DNA of 64,000 nucleotides from an uncultured bacterium (lineage in GTDB: Bacteria; Bacteroidota; Bacteroidia; Bacteroidales; Bacteroidaceae), in assembly GCA_945829115.1 (NCBI GenBank), contig CALZTP010000001.1, positions 18,316 through 82,315 on the forward strand, in the 5' to 3' direction. The position numbers and the translations under genes are program-made. Positions 10,488 through 33,106 of the stretch are shown here, one piece after another. The first letter of the stretch is position 1, and each line of letters starts with the position of its first letter. The notes beneath the pieces are model-generated. The model ran no database searches and had not been told where the DNA came from. It was given only the letters and a program-made list of their open reading frames with translations.

Positions 10488-10542
10488 AGTAATTTCGTAT
10501 TATATATTAATTATGTGTGTTTATAACAAACGCCACATCTAC

Positions 10543-11775
10543 TTATTGTTGTTTCTTGATAATACTGAAGTTACCGTCAATATCATTGAACATGATAATC
10601 CACGTGCCCTCAGCAACACCGATGTTCTTGCCGCCGCCCTTGCCAGCGCCACAAACATTCACTTCACCGTCAGCAGAACCGAAGCCCCAGTTAACATCCC
10701 AAGAGCCAGGGATCTTGAACTTAATCTGTTCTACAGTGCCTTCTGGAACTGTGAGTTCGTAAGCCCAAACGTGGTTCTCGCCAGCCTTATTTGCAGGAGT
10801 CATGTTAACATCAGTCCAATTGCAGAATGAGCCAGTGATGCAAATCTGGTCGTAAACAGTAGGAGTGATATCGAGAGGAGTGATATCACAAGTATTGTTA
10901 GCTGTATTGATAACAATCTTGTAGTATCCGGCAGGATCTACCCAGATATTTCCCTTATCACCGCCTCCGTCACGGTATTCAGCGGTATTTGCGCTTCCTC
11001 CACTCATGAAGCCATGATCCCAGTCACCGAGATTAGAAGGATTAATTTTGAATCCGTCAGTGCTTAACCAGTTTATGAACTGAATGTCGCCCTCACCAGT
11101 GCTCTTGTCATAGTTATATCCTGGAATGAGGAACATCGGCATTGTGCTGACACCAATAAAATCGTTAGAAGTTTTCCAAGCGCCATCACCGATATTATTA
11201 CCCAGGAGATACCACATGATAGGCTCTGCGTCCTTGAGTTCACGGAAGTAAGGAGCCACCTTTAACTCGATGGAATTTGAAGCCACCTCATTAAGTCTTG
11301 TTGTACCCTCTTTGATGAAAGCGAGCACTCTTACGAAGAGTGTCTGAGAAGCTGGAACTTCCCCTTCTGCCCATTTGAAGATCTTAATGAGTGAGAGGTT
11401 TACGTCACTCGCAATCATTTCTCCAGAGCAAGTCTGGAAAGTATTTGGAATGACGTCATAGTCAGCAATTGTAGCTCCACTCTCGTCAGCATTTGCCTGT
11501 GCCACAGAGGTTGTGAAACTATTTGTTGGAGAAATTTGAATCTCGTATGTTGCGTTTATAGGAGCGTTATCAGTTGTATACTTTGGCTGTGACCATGTTA
11601 AGTTCAGAGTGGAAGAGTTCTGAAGGTCAACAGTCTGATTAACGTATGCAGGAACGTTGAGAGTCATTTCCTTAGGCTGTATGAGCGTAGGATTAGAGTC
11701 TCTATCGTCTTCACACGATGTGAAAAAGCCGGCAGCACTAACAAGGAGAGTGCCAAGCAATAATGCTTTCTTCAT
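10543..11775 (-). CDS. susE: SusE-like surface glycan-binding lipoprotein
   Basis: Lipobox FTSC-EDDRD; SusE-type N-terminal Ig domain (LNLTWSQP); C-terminal IKFKIPGSWDVNWG. Confidence 0.8.
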   Translation of the reverse strand: MKKALLLGTLLVSAAGFFTSCEDDRDSNPTLIQPKEMTLNVPAYVNQTVDLQNSSTLNLTWSQPKYTTDNAPINATYEIQISPTNSFTTSVAQANADESGATIADYDVIPNTFQTCSGEMIASDVNLSLIKIFKWAEGEVPASQTLFVRVLAFIKEGTTRLNEVASNSIELKVAPYFRELKDAEPIMWYLLGNNIGDGAWKTSNDFIGVSTMPMFLIPGYNYDKSTGEGDIQFINWLSTDGFKINPSNLGDWDHGFMSGGSANTAEYRDGGGDKGNIWVDPAGYYKIVINTANNTCDITPLDITPTVYDQICITGSFCNWTDVNMTPANKAGENHVWAYELTVPEGTVEQIKFKIPGSWDVNWGFGSADGEVNVCGAGKGGGKNIGVAEGTWIIMFNDIDGNFSIIKKQQ

Positions 11776-11808
11776 ATTGCGTATCTTGTTTTTCGATTAG
11801 TTAAAAAA

Positions 11809-13545
11809 TTATTCATTGTAACCATCAATCTGGGTAAGGTTTCTGTTAGCCTGTACCTCACTTGCTGGCAATGGATAAACATTTCTGAATGCCTCGAAGC
11901 GTCCTCCGGCAACATATTCGCCACCAGACATTGTGCCGCCCTTTCCTGCCCAAGAGTAAGTAGCCTGATTGCCACCGAACTGGTTGAAGCGAATAAGGTC
12001 TGTACGACGGAAGCCCTCAGTATAGAACTCACGTGCACGCTCATCGAGAATATCGTTAAGAGTATATGCCGACTTTTCAGCTGCATTTGCTCTCTTGCGC
12101 AGAGCATCGATATAGTTCTTTGCAGTAGCAGAGCCCTCGCCATTAAGGTGCATATCAGCCTCAGCAGCATTGAGATAAGCCTCAGCGACACGCATGAGGA
12201 AGAAGTCTGTATCAACGTTGTAGCCATCGTGAGGAGTACCACCGTTAGAGTAATTGTTGTTCCACTTTACAGTAGCGAGACCCTGTACGAAACCAGTATT
12301 GTCCTTAAGGCTTACAGTACGCTTGTCAGAGCCACTTACAGCACCCCAGATAAGGCAGCGGTCGTCGATACCCATGTCGCGAATTTCCTTTGCTGTTTTG
12401 CCTTCGAAAGACTTTGGATTGTTTGTGAACTTCTCGATGAACTCTGGACGGAGACGCATACCCGACCAGTTGTTTCCTGTTGTACCAGGAGAGAGGTCAG
12501 TAACGGTCTTCATTGTAGGGTCATAAAGAGCCGCAATCATAAAGAGTGAGCCGCCCCATCCCTGTGTTTTTATACCATCCTGCAAGAGAGGTAGGATAGC
12601 CTCACAGCTTGCTCCGTTAGATCCATTGTCTCCCATGAAGAGGAGGTCGTAAGGGCGATATCCGTTCATCTTCGCTTCCTGAGACATCTTGTCGGCAGTG
12701 AAGAGAGAATAGTTTGAGTTGATAACTCTTTCAGCATATTCCTTTGCCTTGTCCCAATGAGGGTTATTCTGTCCGTCGCCATTGAGGTAAGTACCTGCAT
12801 TGAGGTAGAGACGGCTGAGGAGCATCCAAACGGCAGCCTTGTCGGCACGACCATAGTTAGGGTCAGAGTCATTCTTTGCCTGAGGGTCGAGCATGTCAGC
12901 CTCAGCAGTAGTGAGTTCGTTTACAAGCCAGTTGAACATAAACTCCCTACCAAGTTTCAGAAGCTCAGCACGTGTGTACTGCTTTCCCTCTTCGAAATTC
13001 GCATTGTAGGCATGAGCCTGCTTAGGACTTTCAGAAGAGATTGCCTCGGTGAAAGTAGGATCTCCGAAGAAATCAAGCATGAGGAAATAGTTGTATGCAC
13101 GAATGAAGCGCACCTCTGCAAGCATTGTCTTGTCTTCTGCAACTTTCAGGAAGTTATTACAGAAAGCGATGTTTGAAGTCAGACGATAATAGAGGAAACG
13201 AAGAGTTGCATTGCTTGGAGAAACAAGGTTAAGACTTATTTCCTCAGCGATACCACCATCAGACCACCAACAGATACCCTCATCGGTAGAGAGCTCATTA
13301 AAGTTATATACGTTGCGAATGAGAGTTGACTTACCTGCATCGTCAATAGTGAAGTCTGCATTACCATCGTTACCCTCCATGATGAAGCTCGCATAGCACT
13401 TGCTGTACAAGCCGATGACGTCTGGCTTGCTTTCTGCCTTAGGGTTGATGTTTCCGTCATCAAGGTCGCCCATACAAGAGCTAACACCTGAAGCAAGCAG
13501 TAACGCCATGGCAGGAACCATTATTTTTATCTTGTTTATTTTCAT
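11809..13545 (-). CDS. susD: SusD/RagB family lipoprotein, starch-type
   Basis: Lipobox VSSC; EVRFIRAYNY, RVAEAYLN, ERAREFYTEGFRRTDLIRF motifs. Confidence 0.95.
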   Translation of the reverse strand: MKINKIKIMVPAMALLLASGVSSCMGDLDDGNINPKAESKPDVIGLYSKCYASFIMEGNDGNADFTIDDAGKSTLIRNVYNFNELSTDEGICWWSDGGIAEEISLNLVSPSNATLRFLYYRLTSNIAFCNNFLKVAEDKTMLAEVRFIRAYNYFLMLDFFGDPTFTEAISSESPKQAHAYNANFEEGKQYTRAELLKLGREFMFNWLVNELTTAEADMLDPQAKNDSDPNYGRADKAAVWMLLSRLYLNAGTYLNGDGQNNPHWDKAKEYAERVINSNYSLFTADKMSQEAKMNGYRPYDLLFMGDNGSNGASCEAILPLLQDGIKTQGWGGSLFMIAALYDPTMKTVTDLSPGTTGNNWSGMRLRPEFIEKFTNNPKSFEGKTAKEIRDMGIDDRCLIWGAVSGSDKRTVSLKDNTGFVQGLATVKWNNNYSNGGTPHDGYNVDTDFFLMRVAEAYLNAAEADMHLNGEGSATAKNYIDALRKRANAAEKSAYTLNDILDERAREFYTEGFRRTDLIRFNQFGGNQATYSWAGKGGTMSGGEYVAGGRFEAFRNVYPLPASEVQANRNLTQIDGYNE

Positions 13546-13572
13546 GACTGTATTCTTTTATTTAAAATATGG

Positions 13573-16500
13573 TTAGAAATTGAGGTTCAGACCGAAGAGG
13601 AAGGTACGGCAACGAGGATATACGCTACTCTCGCGTCCAGAAGGCTGCTCAGGGTCAAGACCATTGTATTTTGTGAGAGTGAAGACGTTTGTGCAAGAAG
13701 CGTAAAGACGTCCGCTGATACCCTCATACTTTCCTGCCTTGAAAAGATTCTCGAAAGAATAACCGAGTGTGATATTGTCGCACTTGAGGAAGGAAGCGTT
13801 CTGCACGAAGTAGTCGGTAAGTGGATAGTTGTAAGAAGTCCATCCGTTCTTAACGATATCCTTAGTACTGTTCTCGTAGTAGCCCTTAGGGTTATAGAGC
13901 ACAGAAGTGTTCATCTTTCCCTGCTCAATATCGTTGTATACATAGTTTCCGAAGCTTGCGCGGAAGTTTGTACCGAGGTCGAAGTTCTTGTATCCGAGTT
14001 TAAGGCTGAAGCCACCTGTCCAAGGAGCCGCGATGTTCTTGTAGAAGTAACGGTCGTTGTCGTCGATTATGCCGTCAGCATTGCGGTCAACATAGCATCC
14101 CATTATAGGTCTTCCTGCCTCATCGTAAACCTGCTGGTAAACGAAGAAAGAGTTAGCAGGTTCTCCCACCTTGTGGTAGGTAAGGTTCATGTTCTGACCA
14201 ACCTGCATACCAGCCTCGATTTTGTCGCGACCGCCGTAGAGTTCAGTAACCTTATTCTTATTGTAAGCAACGTTTACGCCCATTTCAAAGAACCAGTCGT
14301 TTGTCTGGATAATCTTTCCATTGATAGCGAATTCAACACCTGTATTCTCCAACTCACCAGCATTGAGCATCATTACGTTATCGAAGTTCATACCAGCTGG
14401 AATTGTAGGAGTGCAGAGAAGGTCGGTTGTCTTACGCTTGTAAACATCAAGAGCCATAGTGAGGCGCTGGTTCCACATACCGAAGTCAAGACCGAGGTTG
14501 TAGGTTGTTGTTGTCTCCCAAGTAAGGTCTTCATTGTAAACGAGAGGGCGCCAGAGAGTACCATCGTTGTTAGGACCTACAGGATAAGTGAAGTGGGTGT
14601 TTGTGCTGTATACGTAAGTAGGAGTATAGTACTCTCTACCAGTATCCTGCTGACCAGTCTGACCCCAACCGAGACGGAGCTTAAAGTCACTGATTGCCTT
14701 TACGTTCTTGAGGAAAGCCTCTTCGTTAATCTTCCAAGCGAGAGCAGCAGAAGGGAAGAATCCCCAGCGATGGCCGTCAGCGAAACGAGAAGAGCCGTCG
14801 TAACGAGCTGTTACAGTAAGGAGATAACGGTTGAGCAGAGTATAGTTAGCACGACCGAGCCAGCTGACGAGGACTGTCTGACCTTTCCAGAAGTCTGTAT
14901 CGTGGCTCTTCATGGTTCCTGCGAGAGGATTTCCTGCATCGTCTTTTCCTTCATAAGTAGAAGGATAGAGAGTCTTTGACCAGCTATCACCCCAGTATCT
15001 CATGCGGCTATACTCATAACCAGCCATTATGTCGAAGTGGTTATCTTTATTAAAGTCCTTGATATACTGAGCGTAAGCAGTAGCCTGCACGTTGTATCTC
15101 TTCTCAGTGTTCTCGCTTTCACCACCATAGTAGAATCCGTATGTTGACTGAGGATTGTTTGTGTTATACTCACCACCGAAAGAATAGTCGCCAGCGAGAT
15201 TCAAGTGGAGGTGAAGGTCCTCAAAACCGTGAATCTTATAGTCAGCCTCAAAGTTACCAAGGAGAATGTGAGCGCTTCTGTCAAATCCGTAGTGTTCAAC
15301 GAGTTCCACAGGGTTCTTTGGAGAGTCGTCGTTACGTCCGTAAGGGAATGTAGGGTCGTACTCGCTAACAGGCTTTGTCCACTGCCAGTATCCACCCCAA
15401 TTCTTGTACATCTCATCGTTGCTTGTGATAGGGCGAGTAGGGTCCATTCTTGTAGCCATACTGATAGCCTCCTGACCACCAGGCACTGTCTTAGAGTAAG
15501 AATACTTACCGTTGATGTTCATGGTGAGATGGTCTTTGAAGAGAGAAGGGTTCACAGTGAAGCCCGCTGTGAGACGGTTGTAGTCAGAGCCCTTGAGGAT
15601 ACCTTGCTGACTTGTGTAGCCAACACTGAGACGGTAAGGCATAGACCATGAAGTGTTTCCGAGTCCTCCAGCAACACTTACGTTATGGTCGTGACTGATG
15701 CCACCACGGAAAATCTCGTCCTGCCAGTCAGTGTCATAAGTGCCAGCAGCAACATTTGGAGTGCCGTCCTCATTGAACTCCTTCCATCCGAGTCCGTTCC
15801 ATGCACTTGAGCCCTCTCCATAATAGTCTTTTATGAAAGAGACATATTCGCTTGCATTCATCACGTCAAGCTTCTTAGCCACTGTGCTGACAGAAAGGTT
15901 TCCGTTGTATGAAATCTTTGGAGCCTGATTCCTGCGACCACGCTTTGTTGTGATGATGATGACACCATTAGAACCACGGCTACCATAAATAGCTGTGGCA
16001 GAAGCGTCCTTGAGTACTGTGAAACTCTCTATATCGTTAGGGTTTACAAGAGCGAGAGGGTTGCTAACACCTTTCTTTCCGCCAGACATCTGCATACCGT
16101 CAATAACGATGAGAGGGTCGTTGCTGGCATTGAGAGAAGCACCACCACGAATACGAATCTGTGCTCCACCGCCAGGTTCACCAGTAGAAGAGTTGATATT
16201 TACACCAGCCACCTTACCCTGAAGCATATCCTGAGCAGAGGTAACCATACCACGGTTCTTCTCGTCTGGCTTGATAGCGGTTACAGAACCAGTAAGGTCG
16301 TTCTTCTTTGCTACACCGTAACCGATTACAACTACGTTTTCGAGCATCTGAGCATCGTCTTTCAGCACAACAACGAGTTCTGGCTTTGCCTGAACCGTTA
16401 CTGTCTGATAGCCGACAGAGGAAATTTGGAGGGAAGCACCCTCAGCACATGTAATCACAAACTTACCGTCAAAGTCTGTAACCGTACCACCGTCTTGTCC

Positions 16501-16653
16501 AACAACGCGGACCGTAGCACCAATAACTCCTTCGCCGGTAGCATCTTTCACGAGGCCATTGACAGTGATCTGTGCAAAAGCTCCGAGAGAAAGCATGAGT
16601 CCAAACAGGAGCATTATAGCTCGCTGCGGGATTGTAAGAAATACCTGCTTCAT
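13573..16653 (-). CDS. susC: SusC/RagA TonB-dependent transporter
   Basis: VVVIGYG, DLTGSV, DIESFTVLKDASATAIYGSRGSNGVIIITTK plug motifs; C-terminal LNLNF. Confidence 0.97.
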   Translation of the reverse strand: MKQVFLTIPQRAIMLLFGLMLSLGAFAQITVNGLVKDATGEGVIGATVRVVGQDGGTVTDFDGKFVITCAEGASLQISSVGYQTVTVQAKPELVVVLKDDAQMLENVVVIGYGVAKKNDLTGSVTAIKPDEKNRGMVTSAQDMLQGKVAGVNINSSTGEPGGGAQIRIRGGASLNASNDPLIVIDGMQMSGGKKGVSNPLALVNPNDIESFTVLKDASATAIYGSRGSNGVIIITTKRGRRNQAPKISYNGNLSVSTVAKKLDVMNASEYVSFIKDYYGEGSSAWNGLGWKEFNEDGTPNVAAGTYDTDWQDEIFRGGISHDHNVSVAGGLGNTSWSMPYRLSVGYTSQQGILKGSDYNRLTAGFTVNPSLFKDHLTMNINGKYSYSKTVPGGQEAISMATRMDPTRPITSNDEMYKNWGGYWQWTKPVSEYDPTFPYGRNDDSPKNPVELVEHYGFDRSAHILLGNFEADYKIHGFEDLHLHLNLAGDYSFGGEYNTNNPQSTYGFYYGGESENTEKRYNVQATAYAQYIKDFNKDNHFDIMAGYEYSRMRYWGDSWSKTLYPSTYEGKDDAGNPLAGTMKSHDTDFWKGQTVLVSWLGRANYTLLNRYLLTVTARYDGSSRFADGHRWGFFPSAALAWKINEEAFLKNVKAISDFKLRLGWGQTGQQDTGREYYTPTYVYSTNTHFTYPVGPNNDGTLWRPLVYNEDLTWETTTTYNLGLDFGMWNQRLTMALDVYKRKTTDLLCTPTIPAGMNFDNVMMLNAGELENTGVEFAINGKIIQTNDWFFEMGVNVAYNKNKVTELYGGRDKIEAGMQVGQNMNLTYHKVGEPANSFFVYQQVYDEAGRPIMGCYVDRNADGIIDDNDRYFYKNIAAPWTGGFSLKLGYKNFDLGTNFRASFGNYVYNDIEQGKMNTSVLYNPKGYYENSTKDIVKNGWTSYNYPLTDYFVQNASFLKCDNITLGYSFENLFKAGKYEGISGRLYASCTNVFTLTKYNGLDPEQPSGRESSVYPRCRTFLFGLNLNF

Positions 16654-17113: not shown

Positions 17114-18139
17114 ATGAATGATCACAAAGTCCTCACAATGAAGGATATCGCCAAGGAATTAGGCATCTCTATTGCTACAGTCTCCAGAGCCTTAAGCAAT
17201 TCGAGTATCATCTCACGAGAAAAACGAGAGATGATACAGCGCTATGCCCAGGAGCATAATTTCACTCCGAATATCATCGCCAAGGACCTTCGTAACACGA
17301 AAATTAAGCCAAAGAAGATTATTGCAATAATACTTCCCGAGGTGGTGCATTATTATTTCGCCACTGTTCTTGATGGAGTGGAAGAAGAGGCGAGAAGGCG
17401 CGGTTATAAAGTCTTCGTTGGACAGAGTCATGAGTGCTATGAGGAGGAGGTGGAACTATGTCGTTCGTTTGACGAGATTCGTGTCTCAGGAATCATCGTG
17501 TCATTAGCAAAAGACACAAAGAACTACGACCATTTCCTTGAACTTCAGAAGAAAGGAATCCCTTTGGTTTTCTACGACCGCATCTGTCATGGAATAAACG
17601 CCTCCAGAGTTGTAGTAGATGACTACAATGGCGCATTCAATGCTGTGGAGTATCTAGTAAAGACTGGCTGCAAGCGCATCGCCTTCTATGGCTCACCAAT
17701 GCACATGGAGATTTCAAAAAACCGATTTAATGGTTACAAGGATGCTCTTCTGAAATATGGCCTGAAGTATGATAGCAACCTCACACGCATTTGCGACAAC
17801 CGCGAAGATGCAGAGAAAATCACTCCAGAACTTCTTGCTTTAGAAGAGCGCCCAGATGCTTTCTTTGCCATCAACGACGACACTGCCATTGGCATTCTTC
17901 GGGCAGTTAAGAAAAAGGGGCTGAAAGTGCCGAAAGACATTTCAATATTCGGATTCTCAGACGGTTTCCGCTCACGTGCCTCAGACCCTCAGCTAACATC
18001 TGTGAACCAACGTGGTCAGGAGGTAGGGCGTGAGGCGGCAGACATTCTTATAAAAGAAATAGAGGGAATTCTTCCTGCCGAAAAGGTGAATAAGAGAATT
18101 GTGATGACAAAGCTTGTTATCAGAGAAACAACGAAGTAA
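17114..18139 (+). CDS. LacI-family transcriptional regulator of the PUL
   Basis: HTH TMKDIAKELGISIATVSRAL; periplasmic-binding-protein-like effector domain; divergent from susC. Confidence 0.95.
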   Translation: MNDHKVLTMKDIAKELGISIATVSRALSNSSIISREKREMIQRYAQEHNFTPNIIAKDLRNTKIKPKKIIAIILPEVVHYYFATVLDGVEEEARRRGYKVFVGQSHECYEEEVELCRSFDEIRVSGIIVSLAKDTKNYDHFLELQKKGIPLVFYDRICHGINASRVVVDDYNGAFNAVEYLVKTGCKRIAFYGSPMHMEISKNRFNGYKDALLKYGLKYDSNLTRICDNREDAEKITPELLALEERPDAFFAINDDTAIGILRAVKKKGLKVPKDISIFGFSDGFRSRASDPQLTSVNQRGQEVGREAADILIKEIEGILPAEKVNKRIVMTKLVIRETTK

Positions 18140-18153
18140 GACATTAGTTACTT

Positions 18154-18219
18154 AAGGCAAAGACCTTTATGATTTTTGGCAAAGATCTTTATGATTTAAG
18201 GCAAAGGCTTTTATAATAA
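18154..18219. repeat. 3 x 22-bp imperfect tandem repeat (AAGGCAAAGACCTTTATGATTT)
   Basis: GGCAAAG at 18156, 18178 and 18200. Confidence 0.8.
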
Positions 18220-18260
18220 CAAAGAGAATAAAAAAATATTTTTTTACCATTTAAAGAAAA

Positions 18261-19628
18261 ATGAAACAAAAACCTAACATGAGTTTCTGGGGACTCTGGA
18301 ACCTCAGCTTCGGATTCTTCGGCGTGCAGATTGCATATGCCCTTCAGTCAGCGAATATCTCAAGAATATTCTCTACATTAGGTGCTGACCCCCACTCGCT
18401 TTCCTTCTTCTGGGTGCTCCCTCCACTGATGGGAATTATTGTACAACCACTTGTAGGAAAATATTCCGACCGCACATGGTGTCGCTGGGGTCGCAGAATT
18501 CCATACCTTTTCCTTGGTGCGGCAGTAGCAGTTGCCGTGATGTGTCTTTTGCCAAATGCAGGTTCTTTGCATCTCGACAACACCACCCTTATCTGGGGCA
18601 CGATGACAGCCGTGATGCTCTTCGGACTTATCATGCTCATGCTTCTCGATACTTCCATCAATATGGCTATGCAGCCGTTTAAGATGCTTGTTGGCGACAT
18701 GGTTAACGAGGAGCAGAAGAAAAAGGCGTATTCCATTCAGTCTTTCCTGTGCAATGCAGGTAGTGTGGTGGGCTATGTCTTTCCTTTCCTCTTCACATGG
18801 ATAGGCATAAAGAACACAGCTCCAGAGGGTGTTGTTCCAGACTCTGTGATATACTCATTCTATATTGGTGCGGCAATTCTCATTCTCTGTGTGATTTACA
18901 CCACAATAAAGGTAAAAGAGTGGAATCCAAAGGATTACAATGAATACAACCATGTAGAAGAACCAACAGGAGAGAAGGCAGATGAACCAGGAATGCTCAC
19001 TCTCCTTGTGAAAGCGCCATCAGCATTCTGGACAATCGGAATAGTGCAGTTCTTCTGCTGGGCAGCCTTCCTCTTCATGTGGACATATACAAACGGCACT
19101 GTGGCAGCAAATGCTTTCGACACACCTATTCTCAACGGTGAGCTGGACGTGAAGTCGCAGGCATATCAGGCAGCAAGCAACTGGGTGGGAATTCTCTTCG
19201 CTGTTCAGGCAATCGGCTCTGTTCTGTGGGCAACTGTAATCCCAAACATCAAGAGCACAAAGTTAGGATACACCATCAGTCTCATTCTTGGAGGAATAGG
19301 ATTTATCTCCATGGCATTTGTAACCGATCAGCACTTACTTTTCGTATCTTTTCTCCTTATCGGCTGCGGTTGGGCTGCTATGCTTGCATATCCGTTCACT
19401 CTCCTCACAAACGCACTTGAGGGTCGTGGGCACATGGGCACTTATCTCGGACTCTTTAACGGCACCATCTGCCTTCCTCAGATCATTGCTGCTTTGTTAG
19501 GTGGCGTGATTCTCTCTGCTCTACCTCTTGCCGAGAACGGCACTTCTAACCAGCCGTTTATGATGGTTGTGGCAGGTATCTTCCTTCTCATAGGCTCTGT
19601 TTGTGTGGTGTTTATAAAGGAGAAATAA
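18261..19628 (+). CDS. MFS sugar transporter (maltose/sucrose, SLC45-like)
   Basis: SFGFFGVQIAYALQ, QPLVGKYSDRT...WGRRIPY, about 12 hydrophobic segments. Confidence 0.9.
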   Translation: MKQKPNMSFWGLWNLSFGFFGVQIAYALQSANISRIFSTLGADPHSLSFFWVLPPLMGIIVQPLVGKYSDRTWCRWGRRIPYLFLGAAVAVAVMCLLPNAGSLHLDNTTLIWGTMTAVMLFGLIMLMLLDTSINMAMQPFKMLVGDMVNEEQKKKAYSIQSFLCNAGSVVGYVFPFLFTWIGIKNTAPEGVVPDSVIYSFYIGAAILILCVIYTTIKVKEWNPKDYNEYNHVEEPTGEKADEPGMLTLLVKAPSAFWTIGIVQFFCWAAFLFMWTYTNGTVAANAFDTPILNGELDVKSQAYQAASNWVGILFAVQAIGSVLWATVIPNIKSTKLGYTISLILGGIGFISMAFVTDQHLLFVSFLLIGCGWAAMLAYPFTLLTNALEGRGHMGTYLGLFNGTICLPQIIAALLGGVILSALPLAENGTSNQPFMMVVAGIFLLIGSVCVVFIKEK

Positions 19629-26482: not shown

Positions 26483-27292
26483 ATGAGAAAAGTAGCATTA
26501 TATTTCCTTGTTTCAGCCATCATACAAGTGTGTTGCTCATTATTCATTGGAACAATTTGGAGTCTTATGACTGACAGTTTCGATATGTCTGGAGAAAAAC
26601 TCATAACAATCTCTGCCATTTCAAGCATCATAACAATCATTGTCTTCGTGGCTGCAAAATGGACACCAGTGAAAAGAATACTTCAAGGAAAGAAACTAAG
26701 GGAAAGTGCTTGTTGGTCGGCTATACTCGCGGTAAGCATAATAATTCCGTCTATGCTATTAGAAGCTCTTATTCCTGAGGCATGGAAAAAAGATATTCTC
26801 GAAGATGTGTTCAAAATGATTTTGCAAAGTCCATGGGGCTATTTGCAGATAGGAATCCTCGCTCCTATAGCAGAAGAAATAGTCTTCAGAGGGGCAATAC
26901 AGAGAACTGCTGCAAACTATTTCGAGGAGAAAGGGGTGAAGAACTTCAAATGGAAGGCAATTCTACTTTCTGCAGTTCTATTTGCCATTATTCACGGTAA
27001 TCCTGCGCAAATTCCTCATGCCCTTCTCATGGGAGTACTATTAGGATGGATGTATAGCCGTTCAGGAAGTATTATTCCATGTGTCATCGTTCATTGGGTA
27101 AACAACAGTATTGGCTTTGCACAATACTTCCTTTTCCCTGAAAGTTACGACATGACAGCAATAGAGCTATTTGCTTCAGAAACAGTATGGAGAATTATGG
27201 CATGGACTCTACTCTCACTCTATTTCTTCTATCGGGCTATTGCTTCCTTAAACAAGGTATGGAAGAAAGAGGAGACTAACAACCTGCCATAA
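26483..27292 (+). CDS. CPBP/CAAX-family intramembrane metalloprotease
   Basis: APIAEEIVFRG, FAIIH, HWVNN motifs; multiple TM segments. Confidence 0.92.
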   Translation: MRKVALYFLVSAIIQVCCSLFIGTIWSLMTDSFDMSGEKLITISAISSIITIIVFVAAKWTPVKRILQGKKLRESACWSAILAVSIIIPSMLLEALIPEAWKKDILEDVFKMILQSPWGYLQIGILAPIAEEIVFRGAIQRTAANYFEEKGVKNFKWKAILLSAVLFAIIHGNPAQIPHALLMGVLLGWMYSRSGSIIPCVIVHWVNNSIGFAQYFLFPESYDMTAIELFASETVWRIMAWTLLSLYFFYRAIASLNKVWKKEETNNLP

Positions 27293-27345
27293 CCCCATTT
27301 AGGGAAAATCTTTCAGAAAAATATTCACCACAAAAGAATAACTGT

Positions 27346-29178
27346 ATGTTTCGTTTCAAGAGATTAATTTCCTCACTGTCGTTCAGAATAAACATCACAC
27401 TGTTTATTGTGTTAGGACTTCTCACCTGGAGCCTTGTAAAAGGTGTCACATTCGTGATAAAAAGGGTGAACAACGGATATAACTGTGTGATGACAAGCAA
27501 ACGAGTGTCACAGAGCATAGAAAGCCAAGTAGAAAAAATGGAGAATGCCATAAAAGCAGGTGCTTTCGCAACACAAAGCAAGAAACTTACGGTGGCGAAC
27601 AGTCATGCATTCTGCGATAGCATACGCTCATTGGTGAATGCTGATACTGTGTATATTATGAACGAGAAGGTGGGGAATGTTATGCTCGGAAAAAAAGCAC
27701 AGGAGTTGTGGACAACTAACAACACCGTCTGGACAGACTCTTATTTCGATGAGAGAAACAACCCTTTGATAACACTCATGACTCCTCTTGCCAATAAACG
27801 AGGCGAGACATATGCCATTCTGTGTGCAGACATCTCACTGAAATGGCTGGAGAATATTGTCAACAACGAGAAGATCACAGATCGTACGTCTATCTCCATA
27901 GCATCAAAAAACGGTTCTTATATTTATGCCTCCGACAGCACAAAGACAACACATAAGGTTGATTCTACAAACTATAGGGAAATGGGGCAGCTGAACCTCA
28001 TAAACGCTAACCTCGGCTTTGACATCACAGACACCGGCTCTATCTCAAAGACAAAATTAGCAAAGGTGGGGTGGACAATAGAGGTGGAAATGCCAGTAGA
28101 CGCATACGATTTGGTAACTATTTCTGTCATGGTGATGATATATTGCATGATGACTGTACTCTTCATTCTTATGGCATTGTGTATCATCATTACACTAAAA
28201 TGGTATCTGAACCCTCTACGCACCATTGCTGACGCTACAGAGGAAATCTCAAGAGGAAACTTCGACTTCAGTCTGCCAAAGATAAAACAGCGCACAGATA
28301 TAAAACAGCTTCGAGATAGCTTTGTGCAGATGCAATCTGCTTTGAAACAATATATTCAAGACTTGAAATACACCACTGAGCAAAAGGTGAGCATGGAGAG
28401 AGATATCTCCATCGCTGCTCAAATACAGCAGGGTATGCTTGCTGCTGATATTGAAGCAAGGGAAGATATTGATATTCACGGCATACTGCGCCCAGCAAAG
28501 ACGGTGGGAGGAGACATCTACGACTATTTTATCAGAAAAGTGAAGAACGAAGACGGAGTATGGGAAGAGAATCTCTTCTTCTGCATTGGAGACGTGTCGG
28601 GAAAGGGTGTTCCAGCTGCTCTACTCATGACCGTCACGGGGCATCTCTTCAGGAATATCAGTCGCCGCATCACAAACGTTTCAAAGATATGTAGCTCCAT
28701 AAACATTGACCTTGCTGAGGGCAACAACGAGAATATGTTCTGTACCGCATTCGTGGGTGTTCTCAACCTCTCTACCGGTATTCTCAACTACTGCAATGCT
28801 GGGCACAATGCTCCTATATTAGTGAGAAATGGGAAGGCGTCAATGTTAGAGTCGTCAATAAATCTTCCTTTCGGCATTGAACCTTCAATGGAATATAGCA
28901 TTCAATCGCTACAACTTCAGAAGAACGACATCCTCTTCCTATATACCGACGGTGTGACAGAAGCCGAGAACACAGAGAAGAAACTGTTTGGAAATGAGGC
29001 TACACTAAAGGCTGTGGAAAGCGCAGGAAATAGCAGCAACATGAAGACGCTCATTGCAAACGTTACTGCTTCTGTATACGACTTTGCCAACGGTGCTGAA
29101 CAGAGTGACGATATGACAATTCTTTCCATCAGAATAAAGAGGGATTACGAAAACAGCGAAGGACTGGTGAAAGCATAA
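27346..29178 (+). CDS. Membrane sensor phosphatase: periplasmic sensor, HAMP and SpoIIE/PP2C domains
   Basis: Two TM segments; HAMP (PLRTIADATEEISRGNFD); PP2C motifs VGGDIYD, GDVSGKG, NAGH, YTDGVTE, DDMT. Confidence 0.9.
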   Translation: MFRFKRLISSLSFRINITLFIVLGLLTWSLVKGVTFVIKRVNNGYNCVMTSKRVSQSIESQVEKMENAIKAGAFATQSKKLTVANSHAFCDSIRSLVNADTVYIMNEKVGNVMLGKKAQELWTTNNTVWTDSYFDERNNPLITLMTPLANKRGETYAILCADISLKWLENIVNNEKITDRTSISIASKNGSYIYASDSTKTTHKVDSTNYREMGQLNLINANLGFDITDTGSISKTKLAKVGWTIEVEMPVDAYDLVTISVMVMIYCMMTVLFILMALCIIITLKWYLNPLRTIADATEEISRGNFDFSLPKIKQRTDIKQLRDSFVQMQSALKQYIQDLKYTTEQKVSMERDISIAAQIQQGMLAADIEAREDIDIHGILRPAKTVGGDIYDYFIRKVKNEDGVWEENLFFCIGDVSGKGVPAALLMTVTGHLFRNISRRITNVSKICSSINIDLAEGNNENMFCTAFVGVLNLSTGILNYCNAGHNAPILVRNGKASMLESSINLPFGIEPSMEYSIQSLQLQKNDILFLYTDGVTEAENTEKKLFGNEATLKAVESAGNSSNMKTLIANVTASVYDFANGAEQSDDMTILSIRIKRDYENSEGLVKA

Positions 29179-29219
29179 AACGTTCAAACCTTCCGGCTAA
29201 AAATAAACAACAAAAGAAA

Positions 29220-29873
29220 ATGATTATAGAAATACAGAACACTCTTGTTTCAATGGATATCATCACAGAGGAATTCTGCTGCGACCTAAATGCCTGCAAA
29301 GGGAAATGCTGCATAATAGGCGATGCTGGAGCTCCACTAAAACTTGATGAGGTATTGGAACTTGAAAACGTGCTTGACGAAACATGGGAGTCGCTCTCGG
29401 CTTCTGCACAAGCAACAATAGACAAGCAAGGAGTGGCATATACAGACGAAGAGGGTGACCTCGTAACAAGCATTGTGAACGGGAAAGACTGCGTTTTTAC
29501 TTACTACGACGACATAACACTCACAGAAACAGACAATAATGGCGAGAAAAAGACCACCACAGTCTGCAACTGCTGCCTCTGCGCCACTGAGAAGGCATTC
29601 CGAGAAGGCCGCACAACGTGGTGCAAACCTGTCTCTTGTGCCCTCTACCCTATCCGCGTGAAGACCCTAAAAAACGGCATGGAGGCTCTCAGCTATCATC
29701 AGTGGGATATATGTGCCGATGCAAGAAAGAAAGGCAGAGAGCTCCATCTTCCGGTTTATAAGTTCCTTCGTGAACCACTTATCAGGCGCTTTGGAGAGGA
29801 TTGGTATGACGAACTTTGTCTTGTGGCAGAGGAAATTCAGAAGAACGGGCTGATTTCTGAAGAGCAAGCATAA
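29220..29873 (+). CDS. DUF3109-family Cys-rich protein
   Basis: FCCDLNACKGKCC, KPVSCALYPIR, WDIC motifs. Confidence 0.85.
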   Translation: MIIEIQNTLVSMDIITEEFCCDLNACKGKCCIIGDAGAPLKLDEVLELENVLDETWESLSASAQATIDKQGVAYTDEEGDLVTSIVNGKDCVFTYYDDITLTETDNNGEKKTTTVCNCCLCATEKAFREGRTTWCKPVSCALYPIRVKTLKNGMEALSYHQWDICADARKKGRELHLPVYKFLREPLIRRFGEDWYDELCLVAEEIQKNGLISEEQA

Positions 29874-29967
29874 CTAATAGCATGTTCGCAGTCAATATCT
29901 CTTTTCATTAGTATCCAGGCAAATTAGTAGAAAAAAGACATTAACAATTAATAAAATGTACCTAAGA

Positions 29968-32694
29968 ATGAAAAAAGTAATTGTATTATTTCAGTTGCTG
30001 TCACTATTCTGTTTTCTACCATTAAGTGCGCAGACAATAGAACCATTCCTTCAGAACTTGGTGCAGGAGAACAGAAAAACTGTGGCTTTTGCAAAGGGCA
30101 AGAAACTGCCTGTTACACAACCAGGAATAGTGAACGGTGTTGACACCGCACTTATCATGAAGAGAACAAACGTAAGCTTCTACAGCGATGGTAGCATAAG
30201 GCGTTTAGGAGTAATAGGAACTTTAGCAGAAGGTAATAACTGTCCAGAAGAGGAACTAAAGGCTCTTGGAATAGAAATATTCTGCAAAATTGGCAATCTC
30301 GTTTTCATAAATGTTCCTATCGAGGCTTTTGACACACTCTGCACAATGAAGGAGTTCGCATCATTTGGTGCTGACAAAGTTCTACGCTTAGACAACAATG
30401 TGGCACGAACCACAAATGGAGTTTCTTTCGTAACAGGTGAAACTCTCCTTCCTGCACTTGAAGGGAGCAAGTACGATGGCACAGGAGTTATTGTTGGTGT
30501 CATAGACGACGGTATTGATTTCAACCATATTGCTTTTAAAGATTCAAACGGCAAAACTAGAATAAAGGCTGCTATGACTGTTTCAAAAAACAGTGAGGGA
30601 ACATTTGAAGTAACCACATACAACACAGAAGAAGATATAAACACCCTCACAACAGGAACCACTTACGACTCACACGGCACTCACACAGCAGCAACAGCAG
30701 CAGGAAGCTGTATTGCAGAGAGTAAGTTGCAGGGAATGACTCCTGGTGCTGACCTTGTTTTGTTCGATATCTCGGGCTATTTCAATAAAAGTGTTCTTGC
30801 ATATGCCGCAAATAAAATCTTCGAATATGCTAAAACTATAAACAAACCCGTTGTTATTAACTTCAGCATTGGCTCAACAGCAGGATTCTACGATGGCACA
30901 GACATCGTTGCTCAGGCTTTCAATACTCTCACATCAGAACAGCCAGGAAGAATAGTGTGTGTATCAGCAGGAAATTCTGCTGATAAAAAATCAAGTATAG
31001 ATGCTACTGTCAATAACGGTGAGATACTGAAAACTGTATTCGATACTAAATCTTCTAACGAGCAATACACGTCATACGATCATGGATTGTTCATACAAGC
31101 AAATTCCAACGCAAATTTCTCTGCACGCCTTATGGCAGTAGACATCACTACAGGACAGGAATATTCTCTTGCAGAGAAACCGCTATACAACTCTTCTAAC
31201 GCTATTACAAACGTTGAATGTAATGTTCAACCTCATGGGGACGGTTCTATATATTTCTTCCAAGCAACTTCTGGCTTTTTGAAGTTCAATGATAAAAACA
31301 TTCGTCTTGGCATAGAATTAAAAGCAACTACTAACAACCAACGTTTTACTATCAACGATGGATATTCTAACAGTAATTATGCTTTTATTGGAGAAAAGGG
31401 AAACAGTGTGTTGACAGGCTACAAAGACGGAGATGGGGAAATGTCAATAAATCCTATTGCATGTACTGATGGCGTTATCTCTGTAGGAGCATATAGAGAC
31501 AGGGACACCTGGCAGAGCATTGATAATTATAACTATTATTCACCAACTATCAACCAATATCCGCAGAATAGCGTTGTTCCTTTCTCAAGCTATGGTGTTG
31601 ATTACTTAGGGAAAATGCGCCCAGATGTGGTTGCACCGGGAGCATATATCATTTCTGCCTTTAATGCCTATGATCAGAATTATTTCTCTGGAGAAGGTAT
31701 AAACAATAAAGAGCCTATAGAAGGGAAAAAATCTAATATCTCACACGTACTAAAGGGTAAAGGCATTGGAGACGGCACGAGACCGTATTTCTACGGTGCT
31801 ATGTCAGGAACATCAATGTCAGCACCAATGGTGACAGGAATTGTGGCACTTTGGCTACAAGCAAATCCTAACCTCACGGTTGCAAATGTAAGAGAAATTA
31901 TACAGAAAACCTCTGCAAGAGATATCTACACTCGCTTTGCAAGCAACATTCCTTCTGGAAATATTGTTCAGGCGGGAACAGGAAAAATAGACGCACTCAG
32001 AGGTATTGAATATATCCTGAACACATACGGAGGAAAAAGTATTCCTACGGATGTTGATATCTCCATGACCAACAATCTTGCTACATTCTCAAGCACAGAG
32101 ATGCTCGACTTCCGCGACCCGGAGATGCAGCCAAAGGCATATATTGCAGAGCAGTTGAATAGTAGTACACTGACCTTCAAAAGAGTGTTTGACAGAGTAC
32201 CAGCAAACACCGGACTTCTCATAAACGCCCCAGCAGGAAACTATAAGATTCCTATTGCAACTAATGCGTCAGAAATCACCAACAACTATCTCTATGGCAC
32301 TGCAGAGAGTCCTGTAACAATCATAAATAAGGGTGAGTGCTATGTCCTTTCAAGCAAAGAAGGTAAAGTGGGATTCTACCAGAATGCAGCAGGACTCACC
32401 ATTCCTGCTGGAAAGGCATATCTGAAGCTACCAGAAGATGCAATGGCAGCATCTCATGTAGTAGGAATCAGTTTATCAGATGAAATCAGCATCCCAGACA
32501 ATTCATCAGATGCAGGCATTGCTATTGACGATATTATTATTGGTAATCTTGTGATTGACTATGGCAATACTACTGGCATTGAGGAAATAAACTCTGAAAA
32601 CCAGCCTGCCGCTGTCTATGACTTGAGCGGTCGTCGCGCAAAGAGAATTGGTAAGGGACTTTACATTATGAATGGGAAAAAAGTGGTAATGTAA
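29968..32694 (+). CDS. Secreted S8 subtilisin-like peptidase with a T9SS-type C-terminal domain
   Basis: Signal peptide; triad GVIDDG (D), HGTHTA (H), GTSMSAP (S); C-terminal TTGIEEI...YDLSGRR...KGLYIMNGKKVV. ATG at 29968 (ORF opens at 29956). Confidence 0.92.
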   Translation: MKKVIVLFQLLSLFCFLPLSAQTIEPFLQNLVQENRKTVAFAKGKKLPVTQPGIVNGVDTALIMKRTNVSFYSDGSIRRLGVIGTLAEGNNCPEEELKALGIEIFCKIGNLVFINVPIEAFDTLCTMKEFASFGADKVLRLDNNVARTTNGVSFVTGETLLPALEGSKYDGTGVIVGVIDDGIDFNHIAFKDSNGKTRIKAAMTVSKNSEGTFEVTTYNTEEDINTLTTGTTYDSHGTHTAATAAGSCIAESKLQGMTPGADLVLFDISGYFNKSVLAYAANKIFEYAKTINKPVVINFSIGSTAGFYDGTDIVAQAFNTLTSEQPGRIVCVSAGNSADKKSSIDATVNNGEILKTVFDTKSSNEQYTSYDHGLFIQANSNANFSARLMAVDITTGQEYSLAEKPLYNSSNAITNVECNVQPHGDGSIYFFQATSGFLKFNDKNIRLGIELKATTNNQRFTINDGYSNSNYAFIGEKGNSVLTGYKDGDGEMSINPIACTDGVISVGAYRDRDTWQSIDNYNYYSPTINQYPQNSVVPFSSYGVDYLGKMRPDVVAPGAYIISAFNAYDQNYFSGEGINNKEPIEGKKSNISHVLKGKGIGDGTRPYFYGAMSGTSMSAPMVTGIVALWLQANPNLTVANVREIIQKTSARDIYTRFASNIPSGNIVQAGTGKIDALRGIEYILNTYGGKSIPTDVDISMTNNLATFSSTEMLDFRDPEMQPKAYIAEQLNSSTLTFKRVFDRVPANTGLLINAPAGNYKIPIATNASEITNNYLYGTAESPVTIINKGECYVLSSKEGKVGFYQNAAGLTIPAGKAYLKLPEDAMAASHVVGISLSDEISIPDNSSDAGIAIDDIIIGNLVIDYGNTTGIEEINSENQPAAVYDLSGRRAKRIGKGLYIMNGKKVVM

Positions 32695-32725
32695 CCATCT
32701 GAAGTATTAACCTAAAAAATCAAGA

Positions 32726-32905
32726 ATGATGAGAAAGAAAACATATCTCGCTCCAGAAATGAATATATGGAACATAAAACAGTGTGTTATTCTGTCTGGA
32801 AGCAATATCAACATTGTCTCTGACGATGGCAATTCTATCATTGACGATATAGGAATTGATGATGGAGGTGCAATAGTGATTGATGACCCAGAGAAAATCT
32901 GGTAA
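32726..32905 (+). CDS. Unannotated 59-aa peptide with KKTYxxP leader-like N-terminus and Asp/Ile/Gly-rich C-terminus
   Basis: MMRKKTYLAPEMNIWNIKQCVILSGSNINIVSDDGNSIIDDIGIDDGGAIVIDDPEKIW; 31 bp after the S8 stop, same strand, ahead of the terminator palindrome; just below the ORF-track cutoff. Confidence 0.75.
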   Translation: MMRKKTYLAPEMNIWNIKQCVILSGSNINIVSDDGNSIIDDIGIDDGGAIVIDDPEKIW

Positions 32906-32933
32906 GCAATTGAGTAGGAGATAAACTCTAATC

Positions 32934-32977
32934 ATAACGTGAGTTCGATGAGTTATATTTCATTGAACTCACGTTAT
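32934..32977. terminator. 18-bp-arm palindrome (ATAACGTGAGTTCG...GAACTCACGTTAT), likely bidirectional terminator or REP-like element
   Basis: 17/18 arm match with one G-U pair, 8-nt loop, between convergent units. Confidence 0.7.
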
Positions 32978-32981
32978 TTTA

Positions 32982-33104
32982 TAAAAAGACAGAGGTTAGT
33001 TTTTTGTTACGATTCCATTAACTAAAAAGACAGAGGTTAGTTTTTTGTTACGATTCCATTAACTAAAAAGACAGAGGTTAGTTTTTTGTTACGATTCTAT
33101 TAAC
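32982..33104. repeat. 3 x 41-bp near-perfect tandem repeat
   Basis: TAAAAAGACAGAGGTTAGTTTTTTGTTACGATTCCATTAAC; one substitution in copy 3; abuts the ung stop codon. Confidence 0.95.
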
Positions 33105-33106
33105 TA

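Follow-up and report, generated by a model that had tools for sequence, protein, structure and literature searches.

A conserved family of small proteins encoded directly behind cargo genes of the type IX secretion system with a short C-terminal domain, and its divergent member behind a subtilase gene

The small protein gene described here is located at positions 32726-32905 (+) of a 64,000-nt stretch of contig CALZTP010000001.1 (assembly GCA_945829115.1), which derives from an uncultured member of the Bacteroidaceae and which, at its full length, is referred to as the window. It closes a two-gene unit, in which a large cargo gene, in this case one encoding a subtilase of the peptidase family S8, is followed by the small gene and then by a terminator. 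Judged by its sequence, it is a selectively maintained small protein gene of the translated type, and we hold with high confidence that it is a real gene and a member of a conserved peptide family. The large genes that precede members of this family have different N-terminal domains and a common tail, composed of a conserved module, a PorU cleavage site and a short type IX secretion system (T9SS) C-terminal domain (CTD). Very probably, it is this tail, and not the protease, to which the peptide gene is coupled. Taken as a whole, the explanation that we favour, with modest confidence, is that the family peptide belongs to the cargo unit and is a probable accessory partner of this class of cargo, while the accessory function as such is put forward tentatively. 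The gene and the two parts of its product are as follows.

32726..32905, + strand: small protein gene, coding for 59 aa, or for 58 aa if the second ATG (32729) is the start
Residues 1-26 of the window peptide: conserved family N-terminus (KKTYxxP...LSGS)
Residues 27-59 of the window peptide: divergent acidic Ile/Asp/Gly tail, with W as the final residue

The presence of an open reading frame (ORF) of 59 aa at this position, overlooked because of a length cutoff, was described in an earlier note made from the sequence alone, and its coordinates and its product, MMRKKTYLAPEMNIWNIKQCVILSGSNINIVSDDGNSIIDDIGIDDGGAIVIDDPEKIW, are as that note gave them. The second ATG (32729), which would give a product of 58 aa, is more likely to be the start than the first one, since the related copies in the contigs L030 and L034 begin with MRKKTY from a single ATG. 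The exact window peptide is called on 134 public contigs, and the 13 same-species variants contain single substitutions only and keep the frame in all cases (a 48-aa "variant" results from an alternative start-codon call on identical DNA). L030, a contig of a related species on which the genes for uracil-DNA glycosylase (UDG), phosphoglycerate mutase and gyrB are syntenic with those of the window, encodes an ortholog that has the same length as the window peptide and is 69% identical to it. For these two peptide genes, the proportions of synonymous (pS) and non-synonymous (pN) differences are 0.38 and 0.155, respectively, and the dN/dS ratio is 0.33; the corresponding pS and pN values for the neighbouring UDG gene are 0.42 and 0.02. 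The DNA flanking the ORF on either side is unalignable between the window and L030. In different members of the family, the invariant proline is written as CCA, CCC, CCG or CCT, and none of the other reading frames is open in relatives. The conservation of the end residues, the variation of their codons and the dN/dS ratio below 1 argue for selection on the protein sequence. An ORF of 71 codons on the opposite strand (32720-32935, -) covers the entire peptide gene; it is probably a chance ORF, given that the corresponding frames hold stop codons in other family members. No RNA family of Rfam matched in the ORF region. Many conserved small genes are lost to ORF length thresholds, and this gene is an illustration of it.

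When the window peptide and that of L005 were used as queries, word-indexed homology searches returned near-identical sequences only. L005, a metagenome-assembled genome (MAG) of a deer Prevotella that was fetched via the S8 protein, contains a small ORF starting with MKKTYIQP just behind a large gene, and a profile of these two peptide types was used for an exhaustive HMMER search of 1.84 billion representative proteins (E <= 0.001). This search yielded 102 clusters at 50% identity, nearly all of them 50-65 aa long and matched from end to end, and a second profile, made from 50 relatives, yielded 476 clusters at 90% identity. Conservation in relatives, on which the earlier note had made the standing of its ORF depend, is thereby established. 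The only name borne by the relatives is "hypothetical protein [Prevotella sp.]", none of them has a Pfam domain, and the range of the family so far is that of Prevotella-type genomes.

A typical member of the family is ~55 aa long and consists of three parts. It starts with the signature M-K-K-(T/I)-Y-(I/M/Q)-x-P-(E/T/A)-(T/M/I/V)-x-(V/I/L)-(V/T/I)-(K/N)-(V/I)-x3-Q-M-(I/L/V)-(A/C)-x-S, in which, according to the residue frequencies, YxxP has a Tyr and a Pro that do not vary in the family, and whose hydrophobic, beta-strand-like pattern ends with (M/I)(I/L/V)(A/C)xS near residue 24. The middle part is a variable low-complexity linker rich in Gly, Ser, Asn, Asp and Thr, and the usual C-terminus is acidic, S-R-R-G-G-S-(L/F/I)-W-D-D-D-E-E. 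Over the hundreds of clusters, the conserved residues at the two ends are K, K, Y, P, S, R, W, D and D.

The window copy has the N-terminal signature (KKTYLAPEMNIWNIKQCVILSGS) as well as the length (58/59 aa) and the position (31 nt behind the S8 cargo gene) of a family member, and a hidden Markov model (HMM) built without it matches its residues 4-34 with a score of 24.1 bits (E = 1.4e-5 over 6,488 ORFs). Its tail, GGAIVIDDPEKIW, does not have the SRRGGSxWDDDEE terminus and is left unaligned by the family HMM, but it is still strongly acidic (net charge -8). The same division is seen in the L030 copy and in the sub-variants L034-36, whose N-termini match the family HMM and whose tails do not. 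In the latter (4001-4183 of L034-L036), a window-type N-terminus (MRKKTYISP...LLSGS) is followed by an unrelated tail, ...ALSPFLQTDKFNDIENLLNL (the tail of the L034-36 sub-variant reads ...FLQTDKFNDIENLLNL), and the peptide gene is situated 15 nt behind the gene of a 791-aa cargo with a divergent module and a short CTD. As the copies of the window, L030 and L034-36 align with the family in the N-terminal ~25 residues and not in the tail, we consider this segment to be the family core. Based on these alignments, the window copy is a divergent family member, and the tail is usually acidic without always being of the WDDDEE type.

Searches of Pfam, NCBIfam, PDB, PHROGs and PADLOC with the peptide or the family gave no meaningful match (one among 111 members has a noise-level hit, E = 0.19, to a Pfam family of protease propeptides/inhibitors), and we found no description of the family in the literature on its motifs or on small ORFs beside T9SS cargo genes. 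The family and its association with cargo genes are new to Pfam, NCBIfam and the searchable literature, and what they most resemble is a cargo-linked secretion helper, in a form that has not been described for T9SS.

An AlphaFold2 (AF2) prediction with 111 sequences gave no secondary structure and a predicted template modelling score (pTM) of 0.21, and the first 20 residues had a predicted local distance difference test score (pLDDT) of 81-84, a combination typically seen for segments that become folded when they bind. The charge is unevenly distributed over the peptide: the N-terminal 25 residues have a net charge of +1 to +5 and the remainder one of -4 to -8, and the short CTDs of the cargo proteins have one of +2 to +5. 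Read from the sequence and the residue frequencies, not by a predictor program, the peptide bears no signal for Sec or Tat export or of the lipoprotein type: the segment following MKK holds Pro, Glu, Lys/Asn and Gln-Gln, and a Cys is present at position +17 in just 36% of the members.

Every family member whose DNA was obtainable was examined, and the genomic context is resolved for the window copy and those of L005, L021, L025, L026, L028, L031, L032, L033, L034, L037 and L023 (two copies). In all 13 resolved contexts, the peptide gene is located 15-144 nt downstream, and on the same strand, of a large gene encoding a protein with the module and a short CTD (the spacer measures 15-40 nt in seven of the 13 pairs), and the family HMM, when run over all the fetched DNA, detected no member elsewhere than behind cargo genes. 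The N-terminal domains of the upstream proteins vary, and include an S8 domain (in the window only), an RGL11 rhamnogalacturonan lyase domain and Big_2 or Ig-like domains, or they are without a Pfam domain. A good alignment is obtained over the last ~170 residues of the upstream proteins, which are made up of a module of ~120 aa, with the consensus GYATF..ALDF..AY..TVTFT..VPAGTGLLLKG..IPV...N.L.G...YVL...GFY...IPAGKAYL, the cleavage motif ...DETT/GI (the slash marks the cleavage), and then VYDLxGRRVxxPxKGLYIxNGKKVxxK. The C-terminus of the window S8 protein aligns with 11 other cargo tails. The locus had been tentatively interpreted in the earlier note as a module of an S8 protease and a peptide. 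This interpretation is not supported, as no S8 match is present in the 12 other upstream partners (11 are Pfam-annotated; that of L034 was not Pfam-scanned) and the feature common to the upstream genes is the module plus the short T9SS CTD, in 13 out of 13 contexts.

The arrangement of hairpins is consistent with a two-gene unit. Terminator-like hairpins are absent between the cargo and the peptide gene in all 11 pairs scanned, and a strong one is present within 150 nt after the peptide gene in seven of these 11 pairs. The small gene of the window had been placed between the stop of the S8 gene and the terminator palindrome, and this is correct: the spacer between the stop of the 912-aa S8 gene (29956..32694) and the start of the ORF is 31 nt, and the hairpin (32934-32977; -29.8 kcal/mol, z = -5.3) begins 28 nt past the end of the ORF. 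Co-transcription, which had been considered likely from this layout, gains support from pig-gut metatranscriptome contigs that span both the 3' end of the S8 gene and the ORF, namely X2 (31716-32948), which stops inside the terminator hairpin, and X3/X4 (31566-33005), which stop at a set of 41-bp repeats. Moreover, the pairwise identities of the peptides and those of the upstream modules are correlated (Mantel r = 0.53, p = 2e-4). The other features of the unit in the window are as follows.

29956..32694, + strand: upstream cargo gene, 912 aa, with a Sec signal peptide MYLRMKKVIVLFQLLSLFCFLPLSA/Q, Peptidase_S8, the pre-CTD module and a short T9SS CTD
32077..32481, + strand: conserved pre-CTD module of ~120-135 aa, from the alignment of cargo tails
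32482..32565, + strand: Ile/Asp-rich insertion of 28 aa, EISIPDNSSDAGIAIDDIIIGNLVIDYG, just before the predicted PorU cleavage site NTT/GI
32566..32694, + strand: cleavage motif NTT/GI, the 39-aa short T9SS CTD GIEEINSENQPAAVYDLSGRRAKRIGKGLYIMNGKKVVM and the stop codon, according to the motifs of PMC11969387
32695..32725, + strand: spacer, A-rich, 31 nt, without a hairpin
32934..32983, + strand: intrinsic terminator, a hairpin with a 19-bp stem (32934-32977) followed by UUUUAU
32982..33106, no strand: perfect tandem repeat, three copies of 41 bp, in the stretch that separates the terminator from the convergent UDG gene

The only Pfam match of the 912-aa product is Peptidase_S8 (PF00082, E = 5.6e-38). 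Its signal peptide ends with ...LPLSA/Q, and its short CTD contains the cleavage motif NTT/GI and the motifs B (VYDLSGRR), D (GLYI) and E (NGKKV). The short CTDs of T9SS cargo of Prevotella intermedia have been described to be 40-55 aa long and three-stranded, with cleavage at PT/GI with a conserved Ile, the motifs B (Y..G.R), D (GxYI) and E, and extra basic residues (PMC11969387). By these motifs, the S8 protein is a predicted T9SS cargo with a short CTD of the Prevotella type, and the label "T9SS subtilase" given to it in the earlier note is right. The standard T9SS CTD models PF18962 and TIGR04183 detect neither this short CTD nor the other cargo tails, so that routine annotation would miss such proteins as T9SS substrates, and a profile of 12 cargo tails matches the CTD-bearing PDB chains 4kca and 7jvi in the CTD part only. 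The pre-CTD module, which in the window has the pattern ATF..LDF..AY..ltF..vPAnTGlLi...ip...N.LyG...YVL...GFY...iPAGKAYL, is common to all cargo genes that have a family peptide gene behind them and has no match in Pfam or PDB. A single-sequence AF2 prediction of the C-terminal 213 aa of the S8 protein was too poor for use (pLDDT 35). Among reference genomes, the S8 protein has only distant relatives (<=34% identity) and no ortholog with which the synteny of the S8-peptide pair could be tested.

We propose the following scenario, which is conditional throughout. The peptide would be made from the mRNA of the cargo, right after the cargo C-terminus, and would be disordered when alone. Its conserved N-terminal segment may bind a conserved partner as an added beta-strand, the partner most simply being the C-terminal module of the cargo, or else a component of the T9SS or of export. 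The acidic tail (net -4 to -8) could then offset the basic short CTD (net +2 to +5), mask it or keep it soluble, and the peptide would act as a private holdase or adaptor that affects the export, sorting or attachment of the cargo. In the window copy, an Ile/Asp-rich tail would have taken the place of the usual acidic one. The route of T9SS cargo across the inner membrane is Sec, which it passes in the unfolded state. Given this passage and the lack of an export signal on the peptide, contact between the two must precede or accompany Sec export, unless the peptide has an unknown exit route. In its most specific form, this proposal, which we regard as speculative, would define a new class of private partners of ~55 residues for T9SS cargo with a minimal, three-stranded short CTD: made from the cargo mRNA, docking by strand addition on the module or the CTD, and covering the basic signal with the acidic tail, they would determine if, and at what time, the cargo undergoes export, PorU cleavage and attachment.

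If true, type A-like T9SS cargo would have its first dedicated chaperone or adaptor. Many gut communities of humans and pigs and of the rumen are dominated by Prevotella and Segatella, which display proteases, glycan-degrading enzymes and adhesins via T9SS. It is an open question by what mechanism their unusually short secretion signals function (PMC11969387), and the position of the peptide gene behind the cargo gene offers a concrete handle on whether short-CTD cargoes need a private helper. The family, with its hundreds of clusters, is invisible to Pfam and NCBIfam and lies under the common ORF length cut-offs.

Within T9SS, the closest precedent by analogy is the clustering of PorP/SprF genes, since cargo genes with a type B CTD cluster with their cognate PorP/SprF genes, e.g. 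sprB-sprF of Flavobacterium johnsoniae (PMC10202324). In both cases, a helper gene is located beside the T9SS cargo gene and is tied to the class of secretion signal and not to the functional domain of the cargo. The peptides of the family differ from PorP/SprF in that they have only ~55 aa, are disordered, lack a signal peptide and are encoded behind cargo with a short CTD, and there is no sequence similarity. A looser analogy may be drawn with chaperones of other secretion systems. The class I chaperones of the type III secretion system (T3SS), and the Eag/DUF1795 chaperones and DUF4123 adaptors of the type VI secretion system (T6SS), are small, acidic, encoded beside the effector and act before export on a particular region of it. 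The family peptide is likewise small, acidic and encoded beside the cargo gene, whereas the T3SS and T6SS chaperones are folded, have 100-150 aa, are often dimers, and belong to one-step secretion systems.

Several observations weigh against the accessory-partner reading. The RNA contigs that join the two genes come from an assembled metatranscriptome and may include DNA. The Mantel correlation may stem from the shared descent of a duplicated cassette, and it is no proof of contact. A cargo gene of L006 that encodes the same module and a short CTD is directly followed by a terminator, without a peptide gene; therefore, the peptide is not a universal requirement for such cargo (a cargo gene of L009, with a short CTD and no module, likewise lacks a peptide gene). 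In L030, the ORF is preceded by 217 non-coding nt and then by the end of the contig, and the peptide gene may thus persist without an S8 3' end in that species. Finally, a peptide without a Sec, Tat or lipoprotein signal would, as a cytoplasmic partner, be able to meet only a C-terminus that has not yet been exported.

Some of these points are those on which the best surviving alternative is built, although we judge it unlikely. It holds that the peptide is a small cytoplasmic protein unrelated to the cargo, such as a regulator, a stress protein or an anti-adaptor, that rides on the promoters of well-expressed surface-protein genes and has been duplicated together with their 3' ends. The lack of an export signal, the L030 relative that may stand alone, the L006 cargo that has the same tail and no peptide gene, and the possibility that co-duplication of the cassette alone produced the Mantel correlation are all consistent with it. 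However, adjacency in 13 out of 13 contexts, across very different cargo proteins and genomes and with peptides that are less than 50% identical, would be hard to maintain without a functional link, and the range of the family, Prevotella-type genomes, coincides with the genus in which short CTDs were described (PMC11969387).

Another alternative, which we deem improbable, is that the family represents precursors of exported or modified peptides, i.e. peptides that are made on ribosomes and modified after translation (RiPPs) or signals. The N-terminal 25 residues would then be a leader for a protein of the RiPP recognition element (RRE) type encoded elsewhere, the middle part the core and the acidic end a follower, and co-expression with the cargo would be regulatory only. 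This explanation would fit the presence of conserved segments at both termini with a hypervariable middle part between them, as well as the N-terminus being predicted as extended with good confidence, as bound leaders are. It also draws on the leader motif of lasso peptides and linear polyphosphorylated peptides (LPPs) that is bound by RREs, [Y/W]xxPx[L/V/I/F/A], which the invariant YxxP of the family resembles (PMC13381572). Like these leaders, the family peptides have YxxP in a conserved N-terminal segment of ~25 aa that is followed by a variable region, and three of the 111 members match the NCBIfam model lasso_cyano (NF033528) weakly (E = 0.045).

The resemblance noted before between the N-terminus of the window peptide and YxxP leaders extends to the layout and to the invariant Tyr and Pro. 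In the YLAPEM of the window peptide, a Met occupies the position where the lasso motif expects L/V/I/F/A, and at this position, two residues after the Pro, the frequencies in the family are T 44%, M 23%, I 16%, V 9% and L 4%, i.e. Thr or Met in 67% of the cases. Features specific for lasso peptides are missing. Lasso precursors have a Thr at the penultimate leader position, a core that starts with G/A/S/C, and an Asp or Glu at core position 7-9. The sole Thr of the window peptide is T6 in KKTY, and neither a leader Thr at -2 nor ring-forming residues are conserved in the family (the conserved leader Thr of lasso peptides is mentioned in PMC10368454). Unlike lasso and LPP leaders, the copies of the family are dispersed behind T9SS cargo genes, and in the contexts examined, genes for an RRE, a leader protease, a cyclase or a kinase are absent from their surroundings.

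The family does not fit precursors with a double-glycine leader. Bacteroidetocins and the GG-Bacteroidales peptides of TIGR04149 are, like the family, small Bacteroidales peptides with a conserved N-terminal segment of ~25 aa, but a Gly-Gly site is missing from the family. Ahead of its conserved break stands (A/T/G/V)-S, and the LSGS of the window copy notwithstanding, Gly is found at -2 in just 13% of the members. Neither TIGR04149 nor any other NCBIfam model matched, and a C39-peptidase ABC exporter was found in none of the contexts. In line with the statement of the earlier note that no RRE, cyclase or exporter gene is visible in the window, the 20 genes scanned around the ORF (~24 kb upstream and 19 kb downstream of it) include none annotated as RRE/PqqD, radical SAM, lasso cyclase, YcaO, LanM or C39-ABC exporter. 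Such genes are not annotated within 5-8 kb in 10 other Pfam-annotated contexts either; for the window as for these contexts, a distant locus in the same genome is possible. Besides, RiPP precursors are not known to occupy so strict a position behind T9SS cargo genes. If the peptides were nevertheless exported or modified, they would constitute a new, dispersed class of peptides that are co-expressed with surface proteins.

It is quite improbable that the act of translation itself is what matters, protecting the 3' end of the cargo mRNA or tuning termination, with the peptide having little function of its own. The short spacers (15-40 nt in seven of the 13 pairs) and the location of the ORF between the cargo stop and the terminator would suit such a role, but the residues at both ends are conserved while their codons vary, and dN/dS is below 1.

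We see very little room for the model of the earlier note, in which the S8 protease would have the peptide as its specific substrate, signal or inhibitor and would serve as its leader peptidase. It derives from the adjacency of the two genes in the window, to which may be added the noise-level match of one of the 111 members to a protease propeptide/inhibitor family (E = 0.19). Against it stand the other upstream partners described above, of which the 11 with Pfam annotation have other domains or none, and the L030 relative, where no S8 3' end is present in the 217 nt upstream. In addition, the signal peptide and the T9SS CTD of the S8 protein imply that it acts outside the cell, whereas an export signal is lacking from the peptide. 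That the ORF is a functionless chance ORF, as its shortness, the AT-rich DNA and the overlapping antisense ORF of 71 codons could suggest, is refuted by the family evidence (a conserved family, a dN/dS of 0.33, a conserved position and other frames closed in relatives) and has next to no likelihood.

Two further ideas on the relationship between the peptide and the cargo were considered and rejected. The first was that the N-terminus of the peptide (Y-x-N-P-T...) supplies in trans the "motif A" (YPNP strand) that is absent from short CTDs. It was rejected for lack of support: hhalign of the peptide against three long type A CTDs gave a probability of 1.5%, and no member matched PF18962. The second was that the Ile/Asp core of the peptide was copied from the 28-aa insertion in the S8 protein, which is lineage-specific, resembles the core in composition and does not occur in the 11 other cargo modules. 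This was rejected as unsupported, the protein similarity having p = 0.15 against composition-matched shuffles and the DNA match between the insertion and the peptide core (E = 0.11) not surpassing an unrelated match that arose by chance in another part of the window.

Apart from the window, one Prevotella-type contig (L023) carries two cargo-peptide pairs 4.5 kb apart, with the peptide genes at 8001-8165 and 12546-12728, and the second of these peptide genes lies behind the gene of a 1286-aa RGL11 rhamnogalacturonan lyase in a pectin-degradation cluster. As this contig holds two of them, several family copies per genome are possible.

Around the small gene of the window, same-species contigs differ in two places. 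A 4-nt indel (TCAT) in the spacer (32695-32725) is variable among them (L010 and L018), and the repeat unit at 32982-33106, TAAAAAGACAGAGGTTAGTTTTTTGTTACGATTCCATTAAC, is present in one, two or three copies depending on the contig. The metatranscriptome contigs break at these 41-bp repeats, which are probably not part of the gene module; beyond them lies the stop of the convergent UDG gene. Positions 1-394 of L030 show a weak inverted match (E = 0.003) to positions 29919-29949 of the window, just upstream of the S8 start.

The genes around the ORF in the window have housekeeping or carbohydrate-use functions. Directly upstream of the S8 gene and on the same strand (26483-29873), there are genes for a CPBP/Rce1-like intramembrane protease, a dCache-HAMP-SpoIIE (PP2C) sensor phosphatase and an Rv0495c-like protein, in an order that is maintained within the species. 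As none of the three is found in the contexts of other family members, a relation to the peptide is improbable. Further away, positions 9051-16653 (-) hold a polysaccharide utilisation locus of the SusC/SusD/SusE/SusF type, which is adjoined by the genes of a LacI-family regulator and a major facilitator superfamily (MFS) transporter (17114-19628).

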